Positions 1,987-32,000 of a DNA stretch of 32,000 nucleotides are shown here, one piece after another; within the stretch, counting starts at the first letter, position 1; each line of letters starts with the position of its first letter. A model generated the notes under the pieces. That model saw only the letters and a list, made by a program, of their open reading frames with translations, was not told where the DNA came from and made no database searches. Source of the DNA: Candidatus Electrothrix yaqonensis (GTDB lineage: Bacteria; Desulfobacterota; Desulfobulbia; Desulfobulbales; Desulfobulbaceae); the NCBI GenBank assembly GCA_047651235.1, contig CP178758.1, forward strand, positions 120,001 to 152,000, in the 5' to 3' direction. Position numbers and translations under genes: made by a program.

Positions 1987-2000
1987 CACGGCGCGCCGTG
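1987..2000. promoter_or_regulatory. Perfect 14-nt GC-rich palindrome CACGGCGCGCCGTG in the 60-nt gap between the effector-like gene and the NLR gene
   Basis: Read directly. Flanking GGG(T)...(C)CCC can extend the stem. Its function (attenuator hairpin or operator) is unknown. Confidence 0.3.
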
Positions 2001-2024
2001 CCCCTACGGTATGGTGATTTACAA

Positions 2025-6068: not shown

Positions 6069-6130
6069 CAGGGGGCAGGGGAGAAAAAAGGAGCCTTTTC
6101 TCCTGACGGTAACCTATCTAACGTATCGAC

Positions 6131-7297: not shown

Positions 7298-7312
7298 CCG
7301 GAGAAAGAGAAA

Positions 7313-8407
7313 ATGAATATGTCAGCAGCAGAAAATTTGTACCCTGTCCACAACAGCATCGGTAATGCCGTACGCGCCATGTTCCCGGAAAGCGCGTTTT
7401 TCATCAACTCGGTCCTGGCCATTGTCGGCCTGATGGCCGTGGTTTCGGCTCTGGCTGCCGTCCTAATCCTGATGGAGCGCAAGGTGGTTGCCCATTTTCA
7501 GGTGCGGCTCGGTCCTATGCGGGTCGGGTATCACGGCGTCCTGCAGCCCCTGGCCGACGGACTCAAGCTGATTTTCAAGGAGATTCTCAAGCCCAGAGGA
7601 GCAGACACCTTTATCTTTTACCTCGCCCCGATGCTGCCCCTGAGTGCGACCTTTCTTATCATGGCGGTTCTGCCCTTTGATCACCATCTGCAGGTAGCTG
7701 ATCCGGATGGAGGCGTGCTCTATGTGCTCGGTATTTCTGGCCTGACCGTGCTCGGTATTCTGCTGGCTGGCTGGTCGTCCAACAACAAGTATTCCCTGCT
7801 CGGCGCCATGCGTTCCGGGGCTCAGATGATTTCCTTTGAGGTCTCTGTCGCCCTGATCATGCTGCTCATTGTTATGGTCTCCGGTACGACCTCCCTGCGC
7901 GGCATCGTGCTTTCTCAGCAGGGCCTGATTTTCGACTGGTGGATATTCAAGATGCCCTTTCTCGGCATTGTCTCGTTTATTATGTACTTGGTCGCCTCCA
8001 CGGCCGAACTGAACCGCACTCCCTTTGATATCGCTGAAGCGGAATCCGAGCTGGCCGCAGGGTACCATACCGAGTACTCCGGCATGAGCTTTGCCATGTT
8101 TTTCTTTGCCGAATTCGTTAATATGTTTGTCTCGGCAGGACTGGCAACCACTTTTTTCCTCGGTGGTTTTCATCCGCCTCTCCTCGACATTGCCGCTGTT
8201 GACGGCCTGTTCAATGCTATACCGGGATTTATCTGGTTTTTCGGTAAGACATTTTTTATCATTTTTGTCTACATGTGGTTCCGCTGGACCTTCCCCCGCG
8301 TCAGGGTGGATCAGCTCATGTACCTGGAATGGAAAATGATGCTGCCCTTTAATCTGCTTCTCCTGATGCTGGGTGCCGTGTTTGTGATTCAGGGTTGGGC
8401 GGGGTAG
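7313..8407 (+). CDS. nuoH: NADH-quinone oxidoreductase subunit H
   Basis: MERKVVAHFQVRLGPMRVGYHGVLQPLADGLKL, and a polytopic membrane protein with AELNRTPFDIAEAESEL. Confidence 0.95.
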   Translation: MNMSAAENLYPVHNSIGNAVRAMFPESAFFINSVLAIVGLMAVVSALAAVLILMERKVVAHFQVRLGPMRVGYHGVLQPLADGLKLIFKEILKPRGADTFIFYLAPMLPLSATFLIMAVLPFDHHLQVADPDGGVLYVLGISGLTVLGILLAGWSSNNKYSLLGAMRSGAQMISFEVSVALIMLLIVMVSGTTSLRGIVLSQQGLIFDWWIFKMPFLGIVSFIMYLVASTAELNRTPFDIAEAESELAAGYHTEYSGMSFAMFFFAEFVNMFVSAGLATTFFLGGFHPPLLDIAAVDGLFNAIPGFIWFFGKTFFIIFVYMWFRWTFPRVRVDQLMYLEWKMMLPFNLLLLMLGAVFVIQGWAG

Positions 8408-8412
8408 GCAAC

Positions 8413-9846
8413 ATGCTGGACGCCGCCATCCGGGAGACCGCTCAAGATGATATTTTTTTGGGAGAGATAGAAGCGCAGGATAATATCCTGCTGAATTATT
8501 TTGCTGAAAAAATAGTCGTTGACGATTCACTGACCAGGCGGCTTGTCAGCTTTCAGGCCAATAAAAGCCGAACGTATTACAGGTGGTATAAATATAAAGA
8601 AGCATTTTCTGCTGATCTGATCGAATATCTTTTCCGGAAATACAATATAAAAAAAGGAAAAATACTTGATCCGTTTGCCGGTGCCGGAACTGCCTTATTT
8701 GCCTGTTCTGCTTTGGGGCATCCTGCTGAAGGGATTGAGGTTTTACCGGTTGGACAGAAGATCATAGAAGCAAATATTCTTGCCAGAGGTAATGGAAAAC
8801 AGAGTATTATCTCTGTTTTGGAAAGATGGGCTGCTGAACAGCCGTGGGAGAGGGAAGGTAAAAGGAAAAAAGTTGAGGTATTCCGGATAACAGACGGGGC
8901 ATATCCCAAAGAGACATATACAAAAATAGAAAGGTATTTAAACGATATCGAGGGAGAGTGTGCAGAAGCACAGGAAATCTTATTGTTTGCCCTGCTCTGT
9001 GTTGCTGAGTTAATAAGTTACACGAGAAAAGACGGGCAGTATCTCCGCTGGGATTATCGGGCTGGGAGAAAGATTGGCAAGACGGCTTTTGATAAAGGGA
9101 AAATTTTATCCTTTGATGAAGCTGTCGTAAAAAAGCTGAACGAAATAAAAAAAGATATTGAACTTGGCGACAGAAAAAATGATCTGTTTTCTTTTATGCA
9201 GAAAGATATACCGGCGGGCAGGCTCAGGCTGTACCGAGGCTCCTGTCTGGAGATTCTGCCTCAATTGGAAAGCAATACCTATACCGGGATAATTACGTCA
9301 CCACCTTACTGTAACCGCTATGATTATACGAGAACGTATGCTTTAGAACATGCATTGCTCGGTGTAAAAGAAACCGAGTTGTCGAATCTGCGGCAGGCTA
9401 TGTTAAGCTGTACAGTAGAAAATAAGGCCAAAGAACTTGTCGGACTGCATCATAAATGGAAAAGAGCAGTGGATATATGCGACAATCTTCCTTTATTGCA
9501 GCAGATACTGCAGTACCTGTACTATAAAAAAGAGAAAAAAGAATTGAATAATAACGGTATTGCCCGGATGGTGCGGGGGTATTTCTATGAAATGGCTTGT
9601 GTGATTCAGGAATGCCGCAGGGTGCTGGAAAAAGGCGGTATGATGTTCATGGTGAATGATAATGTCAGGTATGCCGGAGCAGCATTGTCCGTTGATACAA
9701 TTCTTTCAAAGATAGCAGAGGAAATAGGATTCCGGATAAACAATATTCTTGTTCTGCCCCAAGGCAAAGGAAACAGTTCGCAGCAGATGGGCCGACATGG
9801 ACGGGCAGTTTTGAGGAAATGCGTCTATGTATGGGAAAAAGGATGA
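8413..9846 (+). CDS. Site-specific DNA methyltransferase (amino-MTase; motif I before motif IV)
   Basis: Motif I ILDPFAGAGTALFA and motif IV IITSPPYCNRYDY. The N-terminal YRWYKYKEAFS is typical of this MTase group. I prefer the ATG at 8413, 5 nt after the nuoH stop. The track's TTG at 8395 would overlap nuoH. Confidence 0.9.
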   Translation: MLDAAIRETAQDDIFLGEIEAQDNILLNYFAEKIVVDDSLTRRLVSFQANKSRTYYRWYKYKEAFSADLIEYLFRKYNIKKGKILDPFAGAGTALFACSALGHPAEGIEVLPVGQKIIEANILARGNGKQSIISVLERWAAEQPWEREGKRKKVEVFRITDGAYPKETYTKIERYLNDIEGECAEAQEILLFALLCVAELISYTRKDGQYLRWDYRAGRKIGKTAFDKGKILSFDEAVVKKLNEIKKDIELGDRKNDLFSFMQKDIPAGRLRLYRGSCLEILPQLESNTYTGIITSPPYCNRYDYTRTYALEHALLGVKETELSNLRQAMLSCTVENKAKELVGLHHKWKRAVDICDNLPLLQQILQYLYYKKEKKELNNNGIARMVRGYFYEMACVIQECRRVLEKGGMMFMVNDNVRYAGAALSVDTILSKIAEEIGFRINNILVLPQGKGNSSQQMGRHGRAVLRKCVYVWEKG

Positions 9847-9849
9847 TAC

Positions 9850-10809
9850 ATGCCGTTCAGGATTCATCTGAAGTCATACAAAGACCTCATTACACCCTAT
9901 GAAAAAACGCGGGCCGGATTTATTGCTCTGGCACTTGAGAAAAACAGAAAAGCAACACCTTTTATTGAGGAAGCCAAGGTGCTTAAGGCGTTGGCTTTAA
10001 AGGCGGAAATACCAAGAAAGTTGTTATTGATTCATGAAATAGAAAATTCATTACTGACAGCTGCAGGGATTTCGGAAAAAGCAAAGAATCATCTGCAGGA
10101 GGAAGACAAGAAGGAGGCAATCAAAGGATTAATCGATAACTTTCTCGAACCTGCGGGCAGCTCTTTTATTGAAGAACTGGTTTATCGTTTCCTGCTGACA
10201 AGAGGAGATGCTCTCGGCGGCAGCATCCGAAATCTCTCCGGCGCACTGGGTGAATGGCGGTTTACCAGAATATTCATTTCCACCTGTTCGGTAGGCGGCA
10301 TGACTGTTGAATATCTTGATGCAAAGAGCAGGAAATGGATGCGGGCAGATACTGAACCGGAAATAGAGAAAAGGATTAAGGGGCTGCATTGGCTTTCTTG
10401 TGGAAATCCTCGTACGTTAATTTATAATTTAACCGTACCCACAGTGCAGAAAAATGTTGATCTCTGCCTGTTTGATTGTTCTCCCGATGAAATTATATTC
10501 GGCAAAAACAAAGAATCTGTTCACTTCAAATCGAAAAAATATCTTGCACTGGGCGAGCTGAAAGGAGGTATTGATCCGGCAGGAGCGGATGAACATTGGA
10601 AAACAGCGAACTCTGCTCTTGAGAGAATCAGGAAGGCTTTTTCCGGACAAAACTGCAGGCCGAGAACATTTTTTGTCGGTGCTGCGATAGAACATGCTAT
10701 GGCTGAAGAAATATTTCAGCAGCTGGACAGCGGCAGGTTATCAAATGCAGCAAACCTGACCGATGAGAAGCAGGTCGTTTCACTGTGTGATTGGCTCATA
10801 AAATTATAG
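9850..10809 (+). CDS. Putative type II restriction endonuclease partner (PD-(D/E)XK-like)
   Basis: Starts 3 nt after the MTase stop. Candidate catalytic pattern VDLCLFD ... LGELKGG (D...E-x-K). The family was not identified. The call rests mainly on context. Confidence 0.55.
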   Translation: MPFRIHLKSYKDLITPYEKTRAGFIALALEKNRKATPFIEEAKVLKALALKAEIPRKLLLIHEIENSLLTAAGISEKAKNHLQEEDKKEAIKGLIDNFLEPAGSSFIEELVYRFLLTRGDALGGSIRNLSGALGEWRFTRIFISTCSVGGMTVEYLDAKSRKWMRADTEPEIEKRIKGLHWLSCGNPRTLIYNLTVPTVQKNVDLCLFDCSPDEIIFGKNKESVHFKSKKYLALGELKGGIDPAGADEHWKTANSALERIRKAFSGQNCRPRTFFVGAAIEHAMAEEIFQQLDSGRLSNAANLTDEKQVVSLCDWLIKL

Positions 10810-11038: not shown

Positions 11039-11533
11039 ATGAAAGAAACCGTCCCCAAGGAAAGCCTGCTGGAATACAGCGGCCGCTACCTGTACAAAGT
11101 CTTTACCGGATTCTATTCTCTGATGCAGGGAATGGATATTACCATAAAATATTTCCTTAATCCCAAGACTGTCATTACCCAGCAGTATCCGGAAAACCGG
11201 GATACTCTGGAGATGTTTGATCGTTTTCGCGGGCCGCTGCACATGCCGCATGACGAAAACGGCAACAATGCCTGCACGGCCTGCGGCATCTGTGAAAAGT
11301 CCTGTCCCAACGGCACGATTTCCGTCCTGCCGACCAGGGATATCAGCGGCAGCAAGGTGCTCGGCAAATACATCTACCGGAGCGGCCAATGCGCCTTCTG
11401 CGGTCTCTGCGTGGAAGCCTGTCCGTTCGGGGCTATTACCATGTCCGGGGAATTTGAGCTGACCGTGTACGACCGGAACGAACTGACCTGGGTGCTCAAC
11501 AAACCTCAAGACGAAACACAGGGAGAATGCTGA
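11039..11533 (+). CDS. nuoI: NADH-quinone oxidoreductase subunit I (2x[4Fe-4S] ferredoxin-type)
   Basis: CTACGICEKSCP and CAFCGLCVEACP cluster motifs, with typical size and position. Confidence 0.95.
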   Translation: MKETVPKESLLEYSGRYLYKVFTGFYSLMQGMDITIKYFLNPKTVITQQYPENRDTLEMFDRFRGPLHMPHDENGNNACTACGICEKSCPNGTISVLPTRDISGSKVLGKYIYRSGQCAFCGLCVEACPFGAITMSGEFELTVYDRNELTWVLNKPQDETQGEC

Positions 11534-15437: not shown

Positions 15438-15698
15438 ATGTATTTATCTGTTAAAAATGTTGTGCCGCTCGCAGATTATAAATTGCTTCTGACGTTTGAA
15501 AATGAAGAAGTCAAAATATTTGATCTTACTCCTTACTTGGCAACAGGACAATTTTCAGAACTTCGGGATATTGCACTATTCAACTCTGTCTCCGTCTCTT
15601 TCGATTCGATAGAATGGGCTAATCATTTAGATTTAGACCCAGAGTTTTTGTACAAGAAAAGCACAACAGTCAATAATCCACAGAACATTACAAACTGA
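15438..15698 (+). CDS. DUF2442 domain protein (partner of DUF4160)
   Basis: Lies 4 nt after the DUF4160 stop. V.PL.DYKLLLTFENEEVKIFDL.PYL..G.F..L....LF.SV.V.F.SIEW.N.LDLDPEFLY. Its stop overlaps the next ATG (TGATG). Confidence 0.85.
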   Translation: MYLSVKNVVPLADYKLLLTFENEEVKIFDLTPYLATGQFSELRDIALFNSVSVSFDSIEWANHLDLDPEFLYKKSTTVNNPQNITN

Positions 15699-16153
15699 TG
15701 GAATGGGCCAGCGTCATCAATAATCCTCTGCTGAAGGATCTGCCGTTCAAGATCGAGCTGAACAAATGGGGAAAAATCCTCATGAGTCCGGCGAGCAACA
15801 ATCACGGCAGACTTCAGTACGAGGTGGGCAGGCGCATTGATCGGCATAAGGGCAGCGGCAAGGTCATCATGGAGTGCTCCATTCAGACCAGTGACGGAGT
15901 CAAGGTTGCTGATGTCGCCTGGGCATCGGATGCGTTTATTGAGAAATTCGGTTACAGCACACCGTACAGGAAAGCTCCTGAAATCTGCGTTGAAATAACC
16001 TCTCCTTCCAACTCAAAAGGTGAGATAGAAGAAAAGGTACAGCTTTATCTGGCAAAGGGAGCGCATGAAGTCTGGGTGGTGAACGAGGACGGCGATACCT
16101 TCTATCATAGTCATGAAGGACAAATTTCCGGCAGCAGAGAAATTAAGGATTAA
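15698..16153 (+). CDS. Uma2 (DUF820) family PD-(D/E)XK nuclease-like protein, short form
   Basis: KIELNKWGKILMSPASNNHG, VADVAW and PEICVEITSPSNSKGEIEEKVQLYLAKGAHEVWVV match the Uma2 core pattern (D...E-x-x-S...K). Confidence 0.75.
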   Translation: MEWASVINNPLLKDLPFKIELNKWGKILMSPASNNHGRLQYEVGRRIDRHKGSGKVIMECSIQTSDGVKVADVAWASDAFIEKFGYSTPYRKAPEICVEITSPSNSKGEIEEKVQLYLAKGAHEVWVVNEDGDTFYHSHEGQISGSREIKD

Positions 16154-19272: not shown

Positions 19273-20178
19273 ATGGGTATATGCATGAAGGAACCCTTCT
19301 TCACAACATCCCGAGGAATTCGTTACGACACCGATTGCCTCGAAGTGCTTGGAGAAATGAAGTCCGGCACTATCGATACAGTGTTTGCGGATCCACCGTT
19401 TAATATCGGGAAGGACTATAAAAACGGGTACAACGACAAAGTTAGACATACTGACTATTTAACGTGGTGCCGACAATGGATACTTGAATGCTGCCGTGTG
19501 GTAAAACCGGGCGGAGCTTTTTTTCTCTATGCCACACCTGAACTGGCGGTTCAGTTCGCCTCTATTATGGGAGAAGCACTTAATTTCCGCCACTGGATCG
19601 CCCTTTCAATGAAGGGAACGTATCCTCGGGGAAAGAAACTCTATCCTGCCCATTATGCATTGCTGTACTATACGCGGGGCATACCGAAAACATTCAACAA
19701 GCTCAGACTACCCATCGAAACTTGCCGTCATTGCGGAGGTGAAATAAAAAACTACGGCGGACATCGCAATAAAATGCATCCAGAAGGGGTTAATCTTACT
19801 GATTTCTGGCCGGACACCTCTCCGAACCGCCATAAAAAATTCAAGGTTCGTCCGGGGGTAAATGAGCTTAAACTCATCATCCCTGAACGTGCTCTCCTTA
19901 TCTCGACCGAACCCGGAGATATTGTTCTGGATCCTTTCGGAGGTGGCGGTTCCACATATCAGGCGGCAGAGAAACACCAAAGAAATTGGATTGGGACGGA
20001 GCTGTATGATTCAGAACACATCCGCACCCGCATTGAAGCGCATTATTCACTTTCTGCTGCACAACAACCGCAATTCGATGTCAAGGAGCTATTCATACAT
20101 GAAAATAAGCAAAATGAAGTTCTACGGCGGGTCAAGAGAAAAAGTATGTCGTCTGGGGCTGGCGCATATATTTCTTGA
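19273..20178 (+). CDS. Beta-class DNA amino-methyltransferase (N6-A or N4-C)
   Basis: Motif IV VFADPPFNIGKDY comes before motif I VLDPFGGGGSTYQAA, the circularly permuted beta order. An RBS AGGAAA lies upstream. Confidence 0.9.
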   Translation: MGICMKEPFFTTSRGIRYDTDCLEVLGEMKSGTIDTVFADPPFNIGKDYKNGYNDKVRHTDYLTWCRQWILECCRVVKPGGAFFLYATPELAVQFASIMGEALNFRHWIALSMKGTYPRGKKLYPAHYALLYYTRGIPKTFNKLRLPIETCRHCGGEIKNYGGHRNKMHPEGVNLTDFWPDTSPNRHKKFKVRPGVNELKLIIPERALLISTEPGDIVLDPFGGGGSTYQAAEKHQRNWIGTELYDSEHIRTRIEAHYSLSAAQQPQFDVKELFIHENKQNEVLRRVKRKSMSSGAGAYIS

Positions 20179-20656
20179 GCTGCAGGAACTCCTTATCTCG
20201 ACTGAGATTAAAATTCTTGACAGGAAACAGTCAAACGGTGCCGGACGAGTGCGAGAGTTAATTGATGCCCAATTCGGGCATTACAAAGACTGGGTTCAAG
20301 CGAAATCAGGAGATATTGATTGGGTCAAACGATTTCGTTACAACCAGACCATTGTCTCCAGAATTGGGGTTGAAATTCAGGTTTCCGGCAGAAGCGACCT
20401 GCGTGCACGTGACATCGTCCACATAAGAAACAATCTTCAGGACAGTCATATAGATGTCGGTATCATTGTTGTTCCGTCGGATGAATTCAAATATTTTCTG
20501 ACCGACCGGGTCGCCAGTTTCAGTTACGCAGTACGCTATGTTGAAGAGGAACTTCGCGAGGCCCAGTCTTATCCCATTATTCTGCTGGGCATAGAGCATG
20601 ATGGATTCTCGGATGAACCTTTACCTAAAAAGAGGACCAACAAGGGTAAAAACTGA
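20099..20656 (+). CDS. Putative type II restriction endonuclease, BglII/BamHI-fold-like
   Basis: The core DWVKRF....IVSRIGVEIQVSGRSD ... VGIIVVPSD ... PIILLGI resembles my memory of BglII (D...LVEVQFS...VAIIIT...PIRLVGL). The start is the ATG at 20099 or 20114, overlapping the MTase 3-prime end. The earlier part of the track ORF (19862-) is out-of-frame read-through of the MTase. Confidence 0.6.
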   Translation: MKISKMKFYGGSREKVCRLGLAHIFLELQELLISTEIKILDRKQSNGAGRVRELIDAQFGHYKDWVQAKSGDIDWVKRFRYNQTIVSRIGVEIQVSGRSDLRARDIVHIRNNLQDSHIDVGIIVVPSDEFKYFLTDRVASFSYAVRYVEEELREAQSYPIILLGIEHDGFSDEPLPKKRTNKGKN

Positions 20657-21216: not shown

Positions 21217-22104
21217 TTACTCCCGGATATGAGCGGCCAGAAAGAACAGAAGTTGTTCGGCTATACGGATTTGACCCTCCCGGTTGAGATGCCCGCTGTC
21301 ATTCGTGTATTCTTTAGCCATCGCCGGAATTTTTTTGTCAGCACTTTGCTGATAGACCAACTCTCCGCCCGGAGTATGCGATTCATACTTGGCAAGATCA
21401 AATATTTCATCCTGCGTATAGCGCTCTATTATTTTTTTATTCCACTCGAAGCGGGCAAGATTATTATCGGTTCCTGTAGGTTTGCCCGTGATGAATTTTA
21501 TTGTCTGTTTGAACTGGCCTTTCAGGGACATCGGACTTGAGGTCAGAGGACAGGTCCAATGAAGAAAACGGATTCCTGGATTCTTCTTCTCTAACTGATC
21601 AATCTCCTGCGCATACCGTTCAAACAGCAGCTCCAGCTTCCTCGAAGCATTGATATCCACATAGCAAAGTTTCATAAAGGCAATATCCGGCTCGGCAGAC
21701 CGAATTTTATCGATCTTTTCCTGAAAGCTGTCAATTTTTTTGCCGGGATCGGTATTGAAGCCGAGCGGTGTATGATAAAAACCGGGGGCAGCCATTTCAG
21801 CCGGGTCTTCCGTTTTGACAATATTCAGCTTCAGCTCCGGATATTGTTCTCCGATCTGTTTCAATCCCTCAATAATATTGTAGCCTACGGACATATGGGC
21901 GAAGAAGATCTTCTGTGATCTGAGCTGCTGACCGACCTGTTGACGCTGCTCAGTGTCCATCGTACTGAGCCTGCTCAGCTCAATCTTTGCAGAGGTATCA
22001 AGAACTGTCTCATTCTGTTGCATAGCTGTACACCAAATTCCCGCCAGTAAGAGTATGGATAAAATGATAAGCAAAAATATTCTGTTACGGGTTATCAGTT
22101 TCAT
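21217..22104 (-). CDS. Exported or membrane-anchored hypothetical protein, last gene of the biosynthetic cluster
   Basis: N-terminal signal/anchor MKLITRNRIFLLIILSILLLAGIW. ATGA overlap with the upstream NadE-like gene. No family recognised. Confidence 0.6.
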   Translation of the reverse strand: MKLITRNRIFLLIILSILLLAGIWCTAMQQNETVLDTSAKIELSRLSTMDTEQRQQVGQQLRSQKIFFAHMSVGYNIIEGLKQIGEQYPELKLNIVKTEDPAEMAAPGFYHTPLGFNTDPGKKIDSFQEKIDKIRSAEPDIAFMKLCYVDINASRKLELLFERYAQEIDQLEKKNPGIRFLHWTCPLTSSPMSLKGQFKQTIKFITGKPTGTDNNLARFEWNKKIIERYTQDEIFDLAKYESHTPGGELVYQQSADKKIPAMAKEYTNDSGHLNREGQIRIAEQLLFFLAAHIRE

Positions 22105-23105
22105 AATACAGTTCGCTCCTCAGTTACCGGCTCCACCAACAGGGGAGCAAGCTGCAGATATCTGGTCGTCTTCCGTTTCTGATCAATATCATTATATACC
22201 CACTGAGCCTGCTGTTCCGTCAGCCCGACGGCCGGGGCTACTTCTTCCGGGGAATAGTTATTGTTTCTCCCATACAGACAAAGATCCATCTTATCGTAGG
22301 GTAGGGAAAAATAAAATTCCTCCTGCGACTGGGGTAATGAATAGGTGTCCGTGGTGGGTGCGCGTTGTACGATCTCTGCTGGCAGGCCGAGATGTTCTGC
22401 CAGCCTGTATACCTGCGATTTATACAGATGGGCGATCGGTTTCACATCAGCTGCTCCGTCGCCGAGCTTTACAAAAAAGCCCTGATCATATTCAAGGCGG
22501 TTCGGCGTACCGGCCACTGCGTAATGCAGCCTGTCCGCATGGTAATATTCAAGCACCTTTCTTGTCCGCTGTTTGAAATTTGTTGCCGCAACAATCCCCA
22601 AGTACGCTGCATGGTTCAGCCTGGTGCTGATCTGTTTGCCGTCCGGGGATTGGACGACGATGGAAAAAGCTCTATACGCTGCGCCTTTTTCCAGAACACT
22701 CGGCAGGACGATTTTACACTTCCAGTCATCGCCGAATTCCGGAACAACCTGCCGGATGGCCTGGTTGCGGCGGCGGTAGCAGCCGAACTCTGTCAGCATA
22801 GGTGTAATCACCTCTTCTGTCCAGTTTATGTCCAGATGACGGCACAGCAGTTTTCCGTACTGCTCGGTCTCTTCGGACGAGTCCTGTTCCGGCATCAGCA
22901 GCCCGAAAACACGCTCTTTGCCGACCGCCTGTACACAGAGGGCCGCTGTAGTGCTGCTATCAATGCCGCCGGAAATGCCGAGCACAATGCCCTTGCGTTT
23001 TAAATCGCTTTGCAGTGCTTTGCGGATACTTTCTGCAATACGCCCGATTTCCTGATCACAGTCCAGATTCAGAATATCCGGGCTGAATGCTTTATGTGCT
23101 GTCAT
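22101..23105 (-). CDS. NAD+ synthetase (NadE)-like PP-loop ATP pyrophosphatase / amidating enzyme
   Basis: PP-loop GISGGIDSSTTAAL. Also NadE-like FGLLMPE, YYHADRL and PTTDTYSLPQSQEEF regions. Confidence 0.8.
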   Translation of the reverse strand: MTAHKAFSPDILNLDCDQEIGRIAESIRKALQSDLKRKGIVLGISGGIDSSTTAALCVQAVGKERVFGLLMPEQDSSEETEQYGKLLCRHLDINWTEEVITPMLTEFGCYRRRNQAIRQVVPEFGDDWKCKIVLPSVLEKGAAYRAFSIVVQSPDGKQISTRLNHAAYLGIVAATNFKQRTRKVLEYYHADRLHYAVAGTPNRLEYDQGFFVKLGDGAADVKPIAHLYKSQVYRLAEHLGLPAEIVQRAPTTDTYSLPQSQEEFYFSLPYDKMDLCLYGRNNNYSPEEVAPAVGLTEQQAQWVYNDIDQKRKTTRYLQLAPLLVEPVTEERTVL

Positions 23106-23174
23106 TTTGCCGTTTCCTTATTTTTTGTAAGTTCGTTCCGGCAGACTCTCGATTATTTCTCGTGAACATCAAGT

Positions 23175-24758
23175 TCATGTCTGCATCTTTTCCTGCTGTT
23201 TCAGTACTTTTTTGTCCACTTTACCATTCGGCGTTTCGGGCAGTGCATCTATAAATTCAACAGCCTGCGGGACCATAAAACGCTCCATATTGTCCATCGC
23301 ATACTTCTGGATATCCTCTGCCGAGACCGCAGCATCAGCTGATTTTACGATAAATGCCTTGGGTATCTGGCCCAGAACAGGCTCAGGAATTCCGATAACC
23401 GCCACTTCCGCCACCCCGGGATGCTGACTCAATACATTCTCAATTTCTTTTGGACTTACCCGCTCTCCACGGGTTTTGATCATGTCATCTTTTCTGCCGA
23501 GAAAATAAAGATATCCCTCTTCATCCTGTTTAAAATAGTCACCGGAATAGAGATACCGCTGATGCAGCAGCTCACCATTTCGGTACACCTGAGCACTGAG
23601 GGCCGGATTTTGCCAGTATCCGGACATAACATTTGAGCCCTGAATCACCAGTTCACCTGCTTCACCGGGTTTGACCGGATTTCCATCCTCATCAACGATA
23701 AAAACCCGACAGTTCGGTATAGCCTTTCCTACCGAATCCGGTCGAACATCTATCTGATCCGGCGGCAGATAACTGACCCGTTTGCATTCTGTGAGTCCGT
23801 ACATCGAATATATCTGTACTTCCGGAAAAAGAGAGCGGAAGCGCTGAATATGCCCGACCGGCAGGGCTGCTCCGGCATTGGTGAGAAACCGGAGCGAAGA
23901 AAAATCATATTGTGACAGCTCCTGCAGGTTCAGCATCATTGCCATGACCGTAGGAACCAGCGGAAAACCTGTAACCTTGTATTCACTGATTTTTGAAAGC
24001 AGCTGATGAAAAAAGGTAAATGATTGTTCAAGGACAACTGTACCACCGCACATGACGCTCATGATGATCTGATACAGCCCGTAGCCGAATGACATCGGCA
24101 GGACACAGAGAATTACATCATCAGCACTCTGTTGCGTATACTGGATGACACTCCGCGCTGCGGATATCATATTCATATGGGTACATATAACGCCTTTAGG
24201 TTCTCCGGTAGAACCTGAGGTATAAATCAGAGCCGCCATATCCTGATCTATAATCTCATCCATCGGCGGCAGATCGGACAGGTCTGATATCTGTGCAATC
24301 AGCGTCTCAAAAGCAAGGCAGTTATTGAACTGCTCCTGCACTGTGGCGTTGCTCCGGGTAAATATAAGGCACAGATTTTCAGTGTATTCCTGCACCGCCT
24401 CTTTGACAACATGAGCTTTCTGTCCGGAACTGATCAGAAAACGTGCCTGAGAATCCTTCAGGATAAAAGAAAGCTTGGGAGCTTTCAGCTGTCCGTTTAA
24501 GGGGATAAATACACACCCGACTTTCAACGCTGCAAATAATGCGATTACCGCCTCAATGGAATTATCCAGAAAAATAATAATCCTATCCTGATGCGAAACA
24601 CCCTGCCTGTGGAATGCAGATGCCAGATTGTCGCTCTGCTCGTTGAGCTGTCGAAAGGTGATGCGTTGGCTGCCGCATATTATGAGTGTCTTATCCGGGC
24701 GTTCTCCCGCAGACCTTTTCAGCCATTCATGGACTAATACTGGATAGTTACCTGGCAT
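23175..24758 (-). CDS. AMP-dependent synthetase/ligase (acyl-CoA or acyl-ACP ligase)
   Basis: Adenylation core motifs YTSGSTGEPKGV, YGLTE, GELVIQG, and SGDYF...GYLYFLGRKDDMIKTRGERVSPKEIE. Confidence 0.9.
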   Translation of the reverse strand: MPGNYPVLVHEWLKRSAGERPDKTLIICGSQRITFRQLNEQSDNLASAFHRQGVSHQDRIIIFLDNSIEAVIALFAALKVGCVFIPLNGQLKAPKLSFILKDSQARFLISSGQKAHVVKEAVQEYTENLCLIFTRSNATVQEQFNNCLAFETLIAQISDLSDLPPMDEIIDQDMAALIYTSGSTGEPKGVICTHMNMISAARSVIQYTQQSADDVILCVLPMSFGYGLYQIIMSVMCGGTVVLEQSFTFFHQLLSKISEYKVTGFPLVPTVMAMMLNLQELSQYDFSSLRFLTNAGAALPVGHIQRFRSLFPEVQIYSMYGLTECKRVSYLPPDQIDVRPDSVGKAIPNCRVFIVDEDGNPVKPGEAGELVIQGSNVMSGYWQNPALSAQVYRNGELLHQRYLYSGDYFKQDEEGYLYFLGRKDDMIKTRGERVSPKEIENVLSQHPGVAEVAVIGIPEPVLGQIPKAFIVKSADAAVSAEDIQKYAMDNMERFMVPQAVEFIDALPETPNGKVDKKVLKQQEKMQT

Positions 24759-24838
24759 AGCAATTTCTTATTTCAAGGATATCAGCTGATAACCGGGACT
24801 GTTGAACCGTATAACCTCTGCGTTACGTAACAAAAAAA

Positions 24839-26818
24839 TCAGCAGGTTGCGCAGGTCCGTTTATCAATGACTAAATCAACGTGATACGGTTCTGTGCTGC
24901 CGAAAGTACAATTACCTTTGATAAACTGCTGATACAGAAGCTGGGTCGAGACAATCAGGCAGAAGGCCATATTATCCAGCTCTGATATCTGACTGCTTTT
25001 CTGCACCTTCTTGGTGAGCAGGGAAATTTTATTAAAATCGAACAGTCCGGCATCTTTGATTGTTTTTTCGTTAATACTGTCTACTGCAGGGCTGTCATCA
25101 TGGCCGAGCAGGGCCTTGGCTATGGGTGCCCGATACGGGTGCTTCGGTCGCTGCACTATCTTCGTGGGTAATTCCTTGGCAAATATTTTTTTCAGGATAA
25201 ATTTTTCCTGAATGCCGGAGATTTTCCAGCGTGCCGGAATCCCGGCAAGATAGTCCAAGACCCGGTAATCTAAAAACGGCAGCCGTATTTCCAGTGAATG
25301 CCCCATAGCAACCCGGTCACCCTGAGTGGACAGCAGGTAGTTGCTCATAAACAGACTGCTCTCCAGATACTGGGCTTTTGATAGGGCATCCCGGCTGCTG
25401 AAGCCGGAGGGAAGGCGCTGCCGCAGATCCTCCTGTGCATCATAACCGGCTGTTTCGTTTCGGAACTGCTCACTCCAGAACGATTTTATTCGGCAGGTAT
25501 TTTCCCAGCGGATCGCATGTGAATAAAAGGGATTATCAACGTCCTGCAACCCTTTGGCAAAAAAGGCCTGGAGCATTTTTTTTATCCGCTGATTTTTAAA
25601 AATATACGGATACAGCGTTCCGAGCAGATCGGCCCGCATTTCAGACGCAGGCTGACGGGCCCAGAATCTCCGAATTTTGTTCTCTCGGAAGATATTATAC
25701 CCACCGAAGAATTCATCCGCGCCTTCACCGGTCAGAACAACTTTATAGCCTGCATCACGGACTCTTTCCGACAACAAAAATAACGGGACAGGGGCTGTCC
25801 GCATCATCGGGCTTTCGGCGTGGTAGATCACCTGCGGAAAGTTGTCGGCTATTGCCCGGCCTGACGCGGTCAGTTCAGTATGCCTGGTCTGAAGATGCCG
25901 GACCATCACCTGCTGAAAATCGCTTTCGTCAAAATCCTGGTCTTCAAACCGAATACCGAAGGTGCTCAGCTTGTTGTCGAAATTATGGACAATCTTGGCT
26001 GTAATACCCGACGAATCCAGGCCGCCGCTCAGATAGCTGCCCACCGGTACATCTGCCCGCAGGCGAATCCTGATTGCATCGGTCAGTAACGCATCCAGTT
26101 CTTCAACAGCAGAGGGCAGGTCCAGATCAGATTTTACCGGTTGTTGAAATGGAGTTTCCCAGTAGCGTTGAATCGTGATGTGACCGTTTTTGAGGGAGAG
26201 ATAATGGCCCGGCGGAAGCTCCTTGACCCCCTTAAATGCGGTATGGCCAGGCAGGGTTGTCCAGAATGTGAAAATCTGGTCCAATCCGACCGGATCAAAT
26301 TCACGCTGTATTTCCGGGAACTGAAACAACGCCTTTATTTCCGACCCGAACACCAGTTTGTCCTGAAAAACTGTATAAAAAAGAGGCCGGATACCGACCC
26401 GGTCTCTTGCCAGAAACAGCTCCCGATTCTTGCTGTTCCAGACGGCAAAGGCAAATTGACCGTTCAGCCTGTTCAGACATGCAGGCCCCTGTTCCTCAAA
26501 CAGATGCAGCAGAACTTCGGTATCAGTCTTTGTTGTGAAGGTGTGTGGTTTAAGCAGTTCACCCTTCAATTCTGGATAATTAAAAAATTCCCCATTATAG
26601 GTTATCCATAGCTCCCCGCTCTCGTTGGAAAGCGGCTGAATACCACCTGTCAGATCGATAATACTCAGGCGGCAATGGCCTAAGGCCGCCCAATCGTCAA
26701 GATAAACGCCTGCTTCATCCGGTCCGCGGTGCCGGATTGCCGACAGCATAGCACGTATTGTGTCGGTCTGCGGATATACAGCAGACTGTATTCCACATAC
26801 TCCGGCTATCCCGCACAT
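24839..26818 (-). CDS. Asparagine synthetase B family glutamine-dependent amidotransferase
   Basis: N-terminal nucleophile MCGIAG (class II GATase) and synthetase PP-loop YLSGGLDSSGI. Length is 659 aa. Confidence 0.9.
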   Translation of the reverse strand: MCGIAGVCGIQSAVYPQTDTIRAMLSAIRHRGPDEAGVYLDDWAALGHCRLSIIDLTGGIQPLSNESGELWITYNGEFFNYPELKGELLKPHTFTTKTDTEVLLHLFEEQGPACLNRLNGQFAFAVWNSKNRELFLARDRVGIRPLFYTVFQDKLVFGSEIKALFQFPEIQREFDPVGLDQIFTFWTTLPGHTAFKGVKELPPGHYLSLKNGHITIQRYWETPFQQPVKSDLDLPSAVEELDALLTDAIRIRLRADVPVGSYLSGGLDSSGITAKIVHNFDNKLSTFGIRFEDQDFDESDFQQVMVRHLQTRHTELTASGRAIADNFPQVIYHAESPMMRTAPVPLFLLSERVRDAGYKVVLTGEGADEFFGGYNIFRENKIRRFWARQPASEMRADLLGTLYPYIFKNQRIKKMLQAFFAKGLQDVDNPFYSHAIRWENTCRIKSFWSEQFRNETAGYDAQEDLRQRLPSGFSSRDALSKAQYLESSLFMSNYLLSTQGDRVAMGHSLEIRLPFLDYRVLDYLAGIPARWKISGIQEKFILKKIFAKELPTKIVQRPKHPYRAPIAKALLGHDDSPAVDSINEKTIKDAGLFDFNKISLLTKKVQKSSQISELDNMAFCLIVSTQLLYQQFIKGNCTFGSTEPYHVDLVIDKRTCATC

Positions 26819-27066
26819 CTGATTTTGGAATCCAGAAAATGGCAGATATTATTTATTGAGTCGAGATTTTCAGGAATGATTTCATCGCCCTGAATTTTTA
26901 TCTGAAATTTCTCCTCCAGAAAACTGATAACCTCCAGCACACCTGTAGAATCAATAATCCCGTTCTCCAGCAGGGAAGAATCTCCTTCAAGGTTATGCTT
27001 ATTGCCGAACAGAAAATGTTCAACAATAAAATCATCAACCACATTGTAATACTCTGATTTTTGCAT
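26806..27066 (-). CDS. Acyl carrier protein
   Basis: 86-aa acidic protein with the phosphopantetheine-site pattern GIIDSTGVLEVISFLEEKF. Its 3-prime end overlaps the AsnB-like start by 13 nt. Confidence 0.85.
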   Translation of the reverse strand: MQKSEYYNVVDDFIVEHFLFGNKHNLEGDSSLLENGIIDSTGVLEVISFLEEKFQIKIQGDEIIPENLDSINNICHFLDSKIRCAG

Positions 27067-27231
27067 CTGAATCCCTGTAAAATTATCAGAAAAGCACTGC
27101 CGTGACGACTATCCGGAGGAGTTACGCAGCTGGATTTGTAGCCTTCTGATTTTATCCGGCTAAATATTCGTATCGTTTAAAAAACGAGCCTATTGTAGTA
27201 ACTTAACACTTGGCACTTGGATTTTCTGTTT

Positions 27232-29793
27232 TCAGCAGCGCACCTCCTGCCCTAAATAACCTTCAAGTATTTCGGCGAGTTCCTGAGACTTGAGATCCTG
27301 AAATATCTCATTATGTGTTCCCTGAAGCACATGGAAACAAAATTCACCTGTTATAAATTCAGCCCAGCTTCTTGCCCAGACATTCCTGCCTTCTTTTTCC
27401 TTCTCGTGATATTCACCGCTCCGAAAAAGGACGGTTTTTCCTGTATACACACGGGGTACATATTTCCTGAAAGCCTCCTCATGAGCATCCCGGACTTTAT
27501 GGATTATTTCCAGCTGCTCAGGGGGCCTGTCTGTCTTTAATTTACGGCGGTAGCGACGGCGGAGAAAAGTGAAATCCAGGAAAGCATGAAGCAGTTGACC
27601 TTTTCTGATATGATAGAATACCTGCCGGAGGTAATAAGCTGCCTTTTCAGACGGACTCTTGCTCTTCTTCGCATCAGGGACTACCCGGAGGGGAGGGCCG
27701 GGGTCGAACAGAGCGAGCAGGGAAACCGTACAGCCCTGCGCCTGAAGCTGTTGAGCCATCTCAAAGACGACTTGAGCACCAAAGCAGGTCCCGCCAAGGC
27801 AGTAAGGGCCTTCCGGGTGAGCATTCCGTATCGCCTTGAGATAATACGCTGCCATCTCTTCCACCTCATTCTGAGGCACCTCTCCCTCTTCAAAGCCGAG
27901 CGGCTGGAGTCCGTAAACCGGTTGGTCCGCTCCTAAATGACGAGCATGATACACAGCACGCAATGCGGTTTTTCCGGCCGGAGGCACATAAAAGAAAGGC
28001 GTCCTGCTGCCGTTAGGCTGAATCGGGACCAGCGGAGAGCAGGAAGCTGAATATCCTGTACCTCCGATCAGTTCAGCCATCAGCCTGACCGTCGGTGCTT
28101 TGATCAGGCTTTCCATAGGCAGCTGTCTGCTGAATTGCTTTTCAATTTCAGCAAACAATTCTATAGCCAGCAGAGAATTTCCGCCCAGCTCAAAGAAGCT
28201 GTCCTCCCTTCCCACAGCGTCTGTCTGCAGAAGCCTTTTCCAGATATTGACCAGCTGCAGTTCCAGGATATTTTTCGGTGTATCTTCGGGTGCTCCGGCA
28301 GCTTCGGGAGCAGTCTGCGGCAGCTGAGCCAGGCAGGGAAAATCTGTAATCCGGCGTTCCGGATCAGCGGTGATTTCTGTGAGCAGCTGCTGAAAAGCTT
28401 CTGCCATGTACGGCGCTGCCTCACATAACCCTTCCCTGTACTGGACCAGCCCGGTCAGCCCCTGAGCACTCTCTTTACAGTATAATACCAGATCAAACTG
28501 ACTTATCTCTCCCGAATCCGCCTCGAACGCCTCTGTCCGGACATTGGAAAAGCAGAGCTCCTGCATTGAAGTATTCTGCAGAACAAACAGGACCTGAAAG
28601 GAGGGAGCCTGACCTGTCTCGGAATGCAGCATTTCCACCAGCTTGTCAAAAGGCATGTCCTGATGCTGGACGGCCCCGAACATCATCTCCCGAATCCTGC
28701 CCAGCAGCTCCAGAAAAGACAGGCTGCCCGACATATCCGTCCGCAGAAGCAGGATATTGGCGAACAGACCGACAAGACGCCTGACTTCGGCCCGATTACG
28801 TCCTCCGAACGATGAAAAGACCAGCATATCCTGCTGTCCAGTACAGCGGAACAGCAGAGTCTGAAATGCTGCAAGGAGCGTCATGAATAATGTCACATCG
28901 TTGGGCTTGTTGAACGCTTTGAGGGAGCCGAGAGTCCGGGAGGAAACTTCAAACGGTTGAAGAACTGCACTGCTATGACGACGGCCGGACAGATTCAGTC
29001 TGGGGAGACGGCCGGAGAGCCGGTCCAGCCAGTAACCCGATAGCTTCTCCATCACATCGCCCTGAAAATACTGCCGTTGCCAATGGGCAAAATCGAGATA
29101 CTGAACCGGAAGTTCAGGAAGCGGCGAAGGCTTTCCGGTGGAAAAAGCATCATACAGGGTGCTCAGTTCCTGTATAATCAATCCCTTGGACTGATCGTCG
29201 CTGCAGATCTGATGCATGAGCAGAAGCAGAACATAATCATCGCTGTCCAGCTGAAACAGATCGGCCCGCAGAAAGGGACCCTGTTGCAGATCAAACGGCT
29301 TCCGTACTTCCCGGCTGATCCTTTGGCGGGCCTCGTTTTCAGGTTCGGGAAAGGACCGGCAGTCCGTTACCGGCAGTTTCCTCTCCCAGTCGGACATGAT
29401 CTCCTGTGAGGGCAGCACTGTCCGCAGCACTTCATGACGGCGTATGATCTCGTTGATTCCCTGTTCCAGAGCCGGAATATTTACAGATCCCCGTAACCGG
29501 CGGACGAACGAAACATTGTAGACAAGATCCTGCGTCTCAAACCGGTGCAGTTCATAGAGGCGTTCCTGAGCAAACGAGAGCGGCGCAGTACCGGTTCGCG
29601 GTACCGGCTGCACAGGCGGCATTTTTCTCTGCTCCCTGGCAAGAGTCTGAAACAGTCCCCACAACGTAAGACCGTTCTGCTGTGCAGTACGGCCTGAATC
29701 TGATGGAGAAGTACGTGGACTGCTTCCGGCAGATGACGATGAATGTCCCGGCTTAACTGAAATTTTTGGGAACCCAGTTTCTGTGGATTGCAT
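27232..29793 (-). CDS. NRPS-like C-PCP-TE protein (no adenylation domain)
   Basis: Condensation motifs LSFAQERLYEL and RRHEVLRTVL, and MHQICSDDQS in place of HHxxxDG. PCP motif FFELGGNSLLAIEL. Thioesterase segment PFFYVPPAG...GPYCLGGTCFGAQVVFEMAQQLQ...GTHNEIF. I prefer the ATG at 29793, with a GGGAGG RBS 6 nt upstream, over the track's TTG at 29880. Confidence 0.9.
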   Translation of the reverse strand: MQSTETGFPKISVKPGHSSSSAGSSPRTSPSDSGRTAQQNGLTLWGLFQTLAREQRKMPPVQPVPRTGTAPLSFAQERLYELHRFETQDLVYNVSFVRRLRGSVNIPALEQGINEIIRRHEVLRTVLPSQEIMSDWERKLPVTDCRSFPEPENEARQRISREVRKPFDLQQGPFLRADLFQLDSDDYVLLLLMHQICSDDQSKGLIIQELSTLYDAFSTGKPSPLPELPVQYLDFAHWQRQYFQGDVMEKLSGYWLDRLSGRLPRLNLSGRRHSSAVLQPFEVSSRTLGSLKAFNKPNDVTLFMTLLAAFQTLLFRCTGQQDMLVFSSFGGRNRAEVRRLVGLFANILLLRTDMSGSLSFLELLGRIREMMFGAVQHQDMPFDKLVEMLHSETGQAPSFQVLFVLQNTSMQELCFSNVRTEAFEADSGEISQFDLVLYCKESAQGLTGLVQYREGLCEAAPYMAEAFQQLLTEITADPERRITDFPCLAQLPQTAPEAAGAPEDTPKNILELQLVNIWKRLLQTDAVGREDSFFELGGNSLLAIELFAEIEKQFSRQLPMESLIKAPTVRLMAELIGGTGYSASCSPLVPIQPNGSRTPFFYVPPAGKTALRAVYHARHLGADQPVYGLQPLGFEEGEVPQNEVEEMAAYYLKAIRNAHPEGPYCLGGTCFGAQVVFEMAQQLQAQGCTVSLLALFDPGPPLRVVPDAKKSKSPSEKAAYYLRQVFYHIRKGQLLHAFLDFTFLRRRYRRKLKTDRPPEQLEIIHKVRDAHEEAFRKYVPRVYTGKTVLFRSGEYHEKEKEGRNVWARSWAEFITGEFCFHVLQGTHNEIFQDLKSQELAEILEGYLGQEVRC

Positions 29794-30254
29794 AACATGC
29801 CTCCCGGTATAAATTGTATAACCGGTATAAGGTTTGTCTGTAAAAAAGCCAGCCGTCTTTCCTGTGCTGCTTTTGAGCAACTTTAATATTCAAAGATACA
29901 AAATCTTAGACTTCCAGTCAAGAAAAAATATTGGAATGCCAGGAAGATATATAGTATAAGTTATCATTCTTGTGTTCTGTTTAATATTTTTTACTGTATA
30001 ATCCAGAAATTAGACAGGCTATTGATAACATTCTGACGGTTACAAGATGAATTCAGCAATAGACCAATCGGCAAAAGGAACATATCCGTTTTCATCGGTA
30101 TTACAAATCGTGCCGCTGAACCAGGATGTTGAGTAAAGTGAGTAAAGATCCAAAGCGAAGCCAGCTTCAGTTTGGAAAAAATTCCGGATTTGCATCTTGA
30201 CTGTTTGAAATATGCAGATATAGGTCAACATGGCCAGAACAGTTTCAACGCATC

Positions 30255-30682: not shown

Positions 30683-32000
30683 ATGTTTTTTGCAGATTGG
30701 ACCGATATTTCTGTTTTTCCGCGCAGGCTGAAGGCTGCCCTGCTGCTGTTTGCCTTTGCAGCAGGACTATCAGGAGTCGGCGGATGCGTCGGACATACAC
30801 CTTCTGCCCGTAAGGGGAAAGGGATAAAGCCTGCATCTTCTGTCAGCAGAAGTAAAGCCGATCAGGCGGTTGATTCTGCTGAGTCGGATTCTGATAAATC
30901 TGCACCTGAAATCACCGGAGAGAAAGAAACAGCAGATTACAGCTGCAGTTATTTCCAGTTTCTCCGGGGGCGTCATGCTGAACTGGCCGCAGAATATGAA
31001 GAGGCGCTTGCCTGCTACGAAAAGTCTTTGCGCTGCGACCGGGATGCTGATTTTGTTTTCCGTAAAATCCCTCTGCTCCTCCTCCATCTGAACCGCAGTG
31101 ACGAGGCGGTTTCCAGATTAAAAAAATATTTAACCGATCATCCTGAAGATACGATGTCCAGGCTGCTGCTGGCCAAAATTTTTATCCGTCAGGACGAATT
31201 CGAAAAAGCCGCCCGGCAGTACCGTGAAATTCACGGTCTGCATCCTGATGAGACCGGTTCCCAGATTCTGCTTGCAGAACTTTATCTTGCCGAGAATAAA
31301 ACAGATAAGGCTGAATCAGTCCTGCGGGACATTCTTACTGCGAATGATGACTCCTATCCGGCCCATCTCCTGCTGGCCCGGCTGCTGATTGCGGAAGAAG
31401 ATTTTGCAGCAGGCCGACGGCATTATCAGCAGGCCCTCGATCTTCTCTGGTCTGAAGAGCTGCAGATGGAACTGGCCGAGGTGCTGATCCGGCAAAAAAA
31501 GTATGCCCGCGCAGTTGAAATGTATCAGGAGATCCTGCAGCATGACGAGCTGAACGAGGAGGTCAGAATTTCACTGGTTCAACTGTACCTCCTGCAGGGA
31601 AAAGAAAAAAAGGCCATGGCCGAGCTGAGGCGGCTGAAGAAGAACACGCAGCATCTGGAACAGGTTGAACTGGGCGTTGTCCGGTTGTATATCCGTTGGG
31701 AAAAGTACGACAGGGCCATCCGTCTGCTGGAAAAACTGCTGCAGAGGAAGGAGCTGTCCGGGGCCCGGTATCTGCTTGCCGTGCTCCGTTTTCAGGAAAA
31801 GCAGTATGACGTGGCCTTGCGTGACCTGAAAAAAATCGGTCCGGATGCCGGGGAATATGAAGATGCTGTTTTTCTGCAGGTCCGCACGCTGCAGGAGCTG
31901 GAACGGCATAAGGAGGCTGTCCGGCTTCTGGAGTCGGCTGTTGCCGAAGAAGAAGGACGGACTCCAGATCTGTATGTTCTGCTTGCCGGAATATATGAGT
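30683..32000 (+). CDS. TPR-repeat lipoprotein; 5-prime part only, continues beyond the window end
   Basis: Not in the ORF track because it has no in-window stop. The ATG at 30683 gives MFFADWTDISVFPRRLKAALLLFAFAAGLSGVGGC, a signal peptide with a lipobox-like VGGC. More than 350 aa of TPR-like helical repeats follow (AEYEEALACYEKSL..., FEKAARQYREIH..., YARAVEMYQEIL...). Confidence 0.8.
   Translation, partial: MFFADWTDISVFPRRLKAALLLFAFAAGLSGVGGCVGHTPSARKGKGIKPASSVSRSKADQAVDSAESDSDKSAPEITGEKETADYSCSYFQFLRGRHAELAAEYEEALACYEKSLRCDRDADFVFRKIPLLLLHLNRSDEAVSRLKKYLTDHPEDTMSRLLLAKIFIRQDEFEKAARQYREIHGLHPDETGSQILLAELYLAENKTDKAESVLRDILTANDDSYPAHLLLARLLIAEEDFAAGRRHYQQALDLLWSEELQMELAEVLIRQKKYARAVEMYQEILQHDELNEEVRISLVQLYLLQGKEKKAMAELRRLKKNTQHLEQVELGVVRLYIRWEKYDRAIRLLEKLLQRKELSGARYLLAVLRFQEKQYDVALRDLKKIGPDAGEYEDAVFLQVRTLQELERHKEAVRLLESAVAEEEGRTPDLYVLLAGIYE

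Follow-up and report, generated by a model that had tools for sequence, protein, structure and literature searches.

The locus described here is a six-gene operon on the minus strand of a 32,000-nucleotide stretch of contig CP178758.1 from Candidatus Electrothrix yaqonensis, a relative of cable bacteria. This whole stretch is referred to as the window. The first gene of the operon encodes a stand-alone protein consisting of a condensation (C) domain, a peptidyl carrier protein (PCP) domain and a thioesterase (TE) domain, related to the corresponding parts of non-ribosomal peptide synthetases (NRPSs). The protein is most likely a release module resembling Ab9 of the ambigol pathway, with an HQxxxDD motif in its C domain and a cysteine nucleophile in its TE, and it is attached to an amidation cassette of exosortase type. 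The features of the C-PCP-TE gene are as follows.

27232..29793, minus strand: C-PCP-TE gene, 853 aa, first of the operon (open reading frame, Pfam, Shine-Dalgarno site, and dN/dS, the ratio of non-synonymous to synonymous substitution rates)
28339..29592, minus strand: condensation-like domain, aa 68-485 (Pfam PF00668, 252.7 bits; LCL-like by best matches)
29194..29214, minus strand: HQICSDD replacing HHxxxDG, with Gln195 and Asp200 (phmmer alignment; invariant in the eight closest relatives)
28066..28257, minus strand: PCP domain, aa 513-576, phosphopantetheine Ser540 at 28174-28176 (Pfam PP-binding; S540 invariant)
27262..27993, minus strand: TE domain, aa 601-844 (Pfam; triad Cys670/Asp697/His827)

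The start codon, ATG 29793, lies inside a larger open reading frame (27232-29880, minus strand) and is preceded at 6-nt spacing by the Shine-Dalgarno sequence GGGAGG. Residues ~36-60 of the N-terminal extension ('LWGLFQxLAxEQxKMPPVQP') are kept in relatives, and its Ser/Pro-rich part varies. Because the start is supported by this ribosome-binding site and residues 36-60 are conserved, the longer product of 853 aa is preferred. The extension described in an earlier note on this DNA, made from the letters alone, is thus real, and its conserved part is possibly a docking helix. The public gene call P0001 has 796 aa and starts at Met58 (window 29623-29793 region); it is too short. Pfam finds Condensation, PP-binding and Thioesterase domains and no adenylation (A) domain in the 853-aa protein, so that the PCP, which carries GGNSLLA at 28165-28185, needs loading in trans, as had been proposed.

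Besides the window protein, a homology search identified about 20 C-PCP-TE proteins that stand alone, with lengths of 790-1180 aa. In the eight closest relatives (51-83% identity) the residues H194, Q195, D199, D200, S540, C670, D697 and H827 are invariant. Calculated by the Nei-Gojobori method against three relatives, dN/dS of the whole gene is 0.22-0.26. By part, values are 0.17-0.27 for the C domain, 0.21-0.23 for the TE and 0.4-0.7 for the first 60 residues. The C, PCP and TE parts are under purifying selection. Decay of the gene in relatives, which the earlier note had named as a possibility, is not seen, because dN/dS of the whole gene is 0.22-0.26, and the idea of a pseudogene is ruled out on the same figures. 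The neighbouring enzymes have dN/dS of 0.07-0.17, with ~0.1 for the AsnB-type protein.

The six-gene order is kept on three metagenomic contigs, L004 (75% identity), L005 (52%) and L006 (83%). On L004 the NadE-like protein is 99% identical to that of the window. Comparison of L004 with window 21217-29793 gives a mosaic of synonymous divergence (dS): 0.07 for NadE, 0.12 for the ligase, 0.60 for C-PCP-TE and 0.83 for the SGNH gene. This mosaic points to recombination inside the operon, recent and between related strains. In a further side observation, P0004 and P0005 are 85% and 63% identical to the window protein in the C domain and just 45% and 44% in the TE, both TEs having GGTCFG; their TE half seems either to have been swapped or to evolve much faster, with the Cys kept. 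A back-translated DNA pattern for HQIC.DDQS hit 17 loci in JGI metagenome contigs, all of them chance matches without C-PCP-TE. A scan of GTDB genomes with the clade alignment, in which the window's genome is not among the matches, gave 36% for the best full-length relative among the matches listed and yielded the locus L008. In a representative search with the whole protein the best 150 matches are giant NRPSs of many modules, in which the scores of numerous C domains sum, and it serves as no census of the family.

The C-domain match (cut-off 30.6 bits) aligns PF00668 profile positions 3-444 of 456, and core motifs C1, C2 and C4-C6 are intact. The canonical HHxxxDG motif of the condensation superfamily is absent; MHQICSDDQS, encoded at 29188-29217 on the minus strand, has Gln in place of the second His and Asp in place of the Gly. 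The best matches of the domain among solved structures are 5u89, 2jgp and Txo1/2 (phmmer). 'llllMHQICSDDQS' aligns on 'llllMHHMIVDGWS' of 5u89, and HQICSDD on HHSISDG of TycC 2jgp ('MHHSISDGVS'). Since these alignments to solved structures place the same residues, the hand alignment on which the motif was first proposed is right. The HQxxxDD clade and P0010 also lack about 6 residues between C2 and C3, reading 'TVL------PSQE' against 'TNFATVEGQPVQV' (alignment A1, columns ~155-175).

A neighbour-joining (NJ) tree groups the C domains of 21 stand-alone C-PCP-TE proteins into one clade (bootstrap 78/100) that excludes 97 C domains from modular NRPSs. The eight Cys-TE domains of the window clade group with bootstrap 100 (NJ). 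The second motif position is HQ in 17 of 23 stand-alone proteins and HH in the other six. Most of these proteins have Gly after the motif Asp; the window clade and P0010 have Asp there, and the ab-like pair has Phe. The TE nucleophile across the same 23 proteins is Cys in ~12, Ser in 7 and Gly in 3; Cys also occurs in 2 of ~28 terminal TEs of modular NRPSs from the same search. Cys-type TEs had been called rare. Within the family neither Cys nor HQ is rare, and a C domain with HQxxxDM, that of streptothricin ORF18, is active (PMC11546977). Gly at the nucleophile position is found in P0009 (GGFGVGG), P0010 (GGGGGGG) and P0018 (GGGGVGG). P0009, with 1178 aa, has a second TE-like domain, likewise lacking a nucleophile. 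These Gly-form TEs are dead.

The gene order of the operon is C-PCP-TE / acyl carrier protein (ACP) / AsnB-type / AMP-ligase / NadE-like / SGNH. The five downstream genes are listed below.

26806..27066, minus strand: stand-alone ACP, 86 aa, Ser40 in GIIDSTG (open reading frame; sub-cut-off carrier matches; conservation)
24839..26818, minus strand: AsnB-type glutamine amidotransferase with N-terminal Cys2 and SGGLDSS (Pfam; NCBIfam TIGR01536, 517.9 bits)
23175..24758, minus strand: stand-alone AMP-forming ligase, presumed loader of the carrier protein(s) (Pfam AMP-binding; best NCBIfam TIGR03098)
22101..23105, minus strand: NadE-like PP-loop amidating enzyme, PRK00876 subfamily (NCBIfam NF002048, 504.9 bits against a cut-off of 313)
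21217..22104, minus strand: membrane-anchored SGNH-fold hydrolase or acyltransferase, 295 aa, with Ser72, Asn117, Asp269 and His272 (family alignment; AlphaFold2, AF2; Foldseek)

Two of these genes, the 86-aa ACP (26806-27066) and the AMP-ligase (23175-24758), had been overlooked in the earlier note. The ACP frame lies in a 414-nt 'gap' 3' of the C-PCP-TE gene, and a scan for terminator-like sites between the two genes found none. The ACP matches the carrier families OlsHI-ACP, AmcB, AsbD and DltC with up to 46.8 bits, all under the NCBIfam cut-offs, and Pfam PP-binding with E=0.014. Its identity is 69-88% in L004, L005 and L006, and the homologue in L008 exceeds the PP-binding cut-off. An ornithine-lipid role, as in the best NCBIfam match OlsHI, was judged irrelevant: the match is under cut-off and the OlsHI pathway uses a GH3-like enzyme (PMC12493201). 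The ligase is nearest to NRPS A domains and VinN. It has Gly at the position of the amino-binding Asp235 of GrsA ('LPMSFGYGLY' on 'FSFDGS') and is therefore not an alpha-amino acid activator. From these assignments ACP, ligase and C-PCP-TE would make up a system of two carriers and one loader.

The 295-aa protein has an N-terminal membrane helix and no Pfam match. In its family alignment H70, S72, G74, N117, D269 and H272 are invariant, and blocks I, III and V are present. An AF2 model made with the alignment reaches pLDDT 95 (single-sequence pLDDT 42). Foldseek of the pLDDT 95 model finds SGNH esterases (probability 1.0) and the periplasmic SGNH domain of the O-antigen acetyltransferase OafA. 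By blocks and modelled fold it belongs to the SGNH hydrolase superfamily. The NCBI call for this gene has 268 aa and another source gives 295 aa.

The TE motif GGTCFGA is encoded at 27775-27795 on the minus strand, with the Cys670 codon at 27784-27786. In phmmer alignments this Cys falls on the nucleophile Ser of the human fatty acid synthase (FAS) TE (GYSYGA) and of the NRPS TE 7crn (GWSLGS). The other two triad positions are occupied by Asp697 (27703-27705) and His827 (27313-27315), 'LFDPGP' aligning on FAS 'LFDGSP' and 'QGTHNEI' on 'EGDHRTL'. That the nucleophile is a cysteine, as first read by eye, is thereby borne out. The matches of the TE are FAS-type and NRPS type I TEs, and its Cys nucleophile arose within this FAS/type I-like lineage.

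A cysteine TE invites comparison with enzymes that release strained rings, and the earlier note had drawn this link. The Cys-TE would then form a beta-lactone or beta-lactam, as ObiF1 and SulM do, or, in a milder form, an imide by cyclization of an amide nitrogen onto the thioester. Like ObiF1-TE and SulM-TE, the window TE is an alpha/beta-hydrolase with a Cys nucleophile at the end of a carrier-protein line, and no member of the clade departs from Cys. Weak nucleophiles attack more readily when the acyl-enzyme is a thioester, an established chemistry that may extend to the window TE, and the amidotransferases of the operon would supply cyclizable amide nitrogens. SulTE falls among type II TEs and carries Gln-Cys-Asn (PMC11298585); in the window TE, which belongs to the FAS-type/NRPS type I group, the triplet is Thr-Cys-Phe. 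The 28 PDB sequences that the window TE matches at E<=1e-3 (phmmer) include neither an ObiF1 nor a SulM chain. This lack of detectable similarity, with the lack of Gln-Cys-Asn, means that the link is not supported. The operon also holds nothing for the supply of a beta-hydroxy or beta-amino alpha-amino acid, having no A domain and, as its sole ligase, the enzyme with Gly at the amino-binding Asp position. Finally, Cys, Ser and Gly alternate at the nucleophile among close relatives, which argues against special chemistry tied to Cys. Strained-ring release is accordingly a very unlikely explanation.

The ambigol pathway, the subject of Kresna et al. 2021 (Org Biomol Chem 19:2302), provides the closest parallel. 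Ab6 reportedly loads 4-hydroxybenzoate on the ACP Ab8, where Ab10 chlorinates it. The C domain of Ab9 is said to move the resulting 3-chloro-4-hydroxybenzoate (3-Cl-4-HBA) from Ab8 to the PCP of Ab9, whose TE then hydrolyses it. The window protein is like Ab9 in being a C-PCP-TE without A domain, in having a stand-alone ligase and carrier in its operon, and in the on-carrier tailoring this implies. Two family members are encoded in aryl-acid clusters. The locus of P0112 (Hydrococcus) reads chorismate lyase-like / AMP-ligase / DAHP synthase / PP-binding / C-PCP-TE / halogenase-like, and that of P0080 chorismatase / AMP-ligase / luciferase-like / PP-binding / C-PCP-TE. The P0112 order is that of ab5-ab10 in the ambigol cluster; P0112 stands in for Ab9 by synteny only. 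The window C domain shares an NJ clade with the ab-like P0112. Differences are equally clear. Identity to the ambigol-type proteins is 37-40%, and P0112 combines HHxxxDF with a Ser TE, whereas the window protein combines HQxxxDD with a Cys TE. The tailoring enzymes of the window are amidotransferases, not a halogenase. Pfam and NCBIfam find no chorismate lyase, chorismatase, DAHP synthase or halogenase in the window, so no genes for a chorismate-derived aryl acid; the partners are the AsnB-type and NadE-like enzymes. The context is polysaccharide-related, in contrast to a halogenated aromatic pathway.

The mechanism proposed from this parallel comprises four steps. (i) The ligase would adenylate a carboxylic acid, not an alpha-amino acid and probably di- or polycarboxylic, and load it on the 86-aa ACP. 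(ii) Free carboxylates of the tethered acid would be amidated by the glutamine-dependent AsnB-type enzyme and the ammonia-dependent NadE-like PP-loop enzyme. AsnB-type enzymes act on carrier-bound malonyl units in the case of OxyD and the glutarimide amidotransferases. (iii) The HQxxxDD domain would pass the finished acyl group from the thiol of the ACP to that of its own PCP, thioester to thioester. With a thiol as acceptor, the amine-positioning second His would therefore not be needed. (iv) The Cys670-Asp697-His827 TE would take over the group as an acyl-S-enzyme and release it by hydrolysis or transfer to a weak nucleophile. The product would feed a cell-surface polysaccharide pathway, the SGNH protein working outside the cytoplasm. 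An Ab9-type relay explains why two carriers, one loader and tailoring enzymes occur together with no A domain. That the C-PCP-TE protein is an off-loading module of this type, for acyl relay and release and not for peptide-bond formation, we regard as an even call. The forecast of non-standard chemistry in the earlier note is fair in this sense, and acyl relay and release in a polysaccharide context is more likely than peptide or lactone formation.

The motif also recalls the X domain of glycopeptide synthetases, which has HRxxxDD and is dead (PMC11546977). The HQxxxDD domain could likewise be inert and dock the AsnB-type and NadE-like enzymes to a PCP-bound substrate, with the ligase loading the PCP directly and the Cys-TE releasing the product. 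Both domains lack the second His and have Asp for Gly. The 6-residue deletion between C2 and C3 in the window clade fits such a scaffold, as does the faster evolution of C-PCP-TE (dN/dS 0.22-0.26) than of the enzymes (0.07-0.17). The comparison with the X domain breaks down in several respects. That domain sits between the last PCP and the TE and recruits cytochrome P450 enzymes (P450s); the window domain has Gln rather than Arg and is N-terminal, and Pfam finds no P450 genes in the window. It scores 228 bits with a working LCL domain (5u89) and 115 bits with the X domain (4tx2; phmmer), and so is far nearer to the former. Most family members, including those of the aryl-acid clusters, have HQ with a normal DG, and an inert domain leaves the free ACP without a role. 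An inert scaffold is thus distinctly improbable.

The five downstream genes appear to be a cassette of exosortase (EpsH/EpsI) polysaccharide loci. This assignment draws on related loci and on the exosortase A/PEP-CTERM families TIGR03098 and TIGR03108. L107, L108 and L109 were reached via SGNH-protein homologues. In L107 the cassette runs ACP-AsnB-ligase-NadE-SGNH, as in the window, but has no C-PCP-TE, and EpsI is nearby. In L109 the cassette genes are scattered through a complete exosortase polysaccharide locus with a deacetylase, DegT, a FemAB-like protein, EpsH, EpsI, glycosyltransferases, UDP-glucose dehydrogenase and a flippase. L108 is a polysaccharide locus of Wzy/Bac_transf type. The acidobacterial metagenome-assembled genome locus L008 has the same five gene types in another order, ACP-ligase-AsnB-NadE-C-PCP-TE, beside a large glycosyltransferase; its C-PCP-TE protein has HQIIFDGAS and a Ser TE. 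Among NCBIfam models, the window ligase scores highest with TIGR03098, for the exosortase A-associated ligase (486.6 bits; cut-off 592.35). The AsnB-type protein has TIGR03108, for the XrtA/PEP-CTERM amidotransferase, as its second match (448.8 bits; cut-off 816.9). Both scores are under the curated cut-offs, and the 32,000-nt window holds no exosortase gene. The classical exosortase set has a decarboxylase dependent on pyridoxal phosphate and alpha/beta hydrolases, in place of which the window cassette has the NadE-like, SGNH and C-PCP-TE proteins. On the evidence of these loci, C-PCP-TE is an addition to the cassette, acquired in at least two lineages. A literature search found no paper describing the cassette. 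A possible further pointer to the exosortase set lies adjacent to the operon.

30683..32000, plus strand: divergent tetratricopeptide-repeat (TPR) protein, PrsT-like, running past the window end (open frame; Pfam TPR; TIGR02917)

The best NCBIfam match of this protein, of which half lies inside the window, is TIGR02917 PrsT with 105.8 bits against a cut-off of 312. Its gene possibly marks the edge of an exosortase/PEP-CTERM locus. The protein has a signal-like N-terminus ending in Cys and is possibly a lipoprotein.

The surroundings invite a bolder version of the relay. The C-PCP-TE protein would have been recruited to exopolysaccharide or envelope decoration; its HQxxxDD domain would make no amide bond and would gate the carrier-to-carrier hand-over of a doubly amidated acyl group, and the Cys TE would hand this group on, as a thioester, to an acceptor linked to a sugar or lipid and not to water. 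We consider this version speculative and improbable. If true, it would constitute a new route for fixing unusual acyl groups on a cell-surface polymer.

The same surroundings bear on the possibility that the C domain genuinely synthesizes an amide or ester. It would then join the carrier-bound acyl group to a soluble or a sugar- or lipid-linked amine or hydroxyl, as VibH and ORF18 do, with the TE for editing or alternative release. ORF18 is a C-PCP didomain with HQxxxDM that is loaded by stand-alone A domains and active on a free amino sugar; its activity is lowered by a Q-to-A exchange (PMC11546977). Compared by description, the window protein shares with it the Gln for the second His and a PCP that follows the C domain and is loaded in trans. 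Intact core motifs C1, C2 and C4-C6 are in keeping with a synthase, as is the polysaccharide-related context, where cassette loci have a DegT aminotransferase, a FemAB-like transferase and glycosyltransferases, and where P0007 and P0008 lie beside ABC transporters and an NKWYS capsular gene. ORF18 differs in having no TE, Met rather than Asp after the motif Asp, and a free amino-sugar acceptor; the Gly-to-Asp change by the acceptor site is thus not part of the active precedent. A synthase also leaves unexplained why a second carrier protein persists alongside just one loader and why the full catalytic triad of the TE is invariant, and the window operon has no candidate amine-forming gene. It is a possible function, though a rather unlikely one.

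Several points weigh against the Ab9-type relay and its setting. A Gln cannot serve as base for a thiol nucleophile. The window C domain is 40-42% identical to P0112 and P0080, no higher than to modular C domains (median 42.6%), and the family link depends on the NJ tree with its bootstrap of 78. The C domain of L008 falls outside the C-PCP-TE clade (NJ) despite the same operon partners. Next to the genes of the close relatives P0006-P0008, which carry HQxxxDD and Cys, there is neither ACP, ligase nor cassette; their surroundings are toxin-antitoxin genes, ABC transporters and the one capsular NKWYS gene. Conversely, the cassette stands without C-PCP-TE in L107 and L109, which makes the protein accessory to it. 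The Gly-to-Asp change occurs too in the catalytically dead glycopeptide X domain (PMC11546977).

One small family varies at the two most debated positions of NRPS termination, the second His of the C domain (His or Gln) and the nucleophile of the TE (Ser, Cys or Gly). With its clear operon partners, it is a good system for defining the roles of these residues when the acceptor is a thiol and not an amine. The tie between an NRPS-type release module and a widespread, biochemically uncharacterized ligase/ACP/amidotransferase cassette gives a handle on the product of the cassette. The envelope chemistry of cable bacteria is of current interest; no link from C-PCP-TE to it is shown here.

The remaining observations concern neighbouring regions. 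On L001, a 1343-aa protein with no Pfam match is encoded 3' of the P0006 C-PCP-TE gene (5612-9643). An Rfam scan of the window gave no match. Restriction-modification (R-M) genes have invaded a nuo operon that makes up the left half of the window. Its NuoD shares 83-86% identity with proteins of Candidatus Electrothrix, in keeping with a host related to cable bacteria. At 8395-10809 a DNA methylase and a BsoBI-type restriction endonuclease lie between nuoH (7313-8407) and nuoI (11039-11533); the methylase frame overlaps the nuoH stop, and GC content is ~43-45% in the R-M insert against 55-60% in the nuo genes. A second R-M pair, an N6_N4 methylase and a BglII-like endonuclease, follows nuoN at 19273-20656. 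A DUF29 gene (5565-6068) lies ahead of nuoD, and a Uma2-family endonuclease gene (15698-16153) between nuoL and nuoM. The nuo operon is heavily colonized by selfish or defence genes. On the plus strand, 1998-3965 encodes a 655-aa NB-ARC/NACHT-type ATPase with C-terminal TPR repeats, which is STAND-like.

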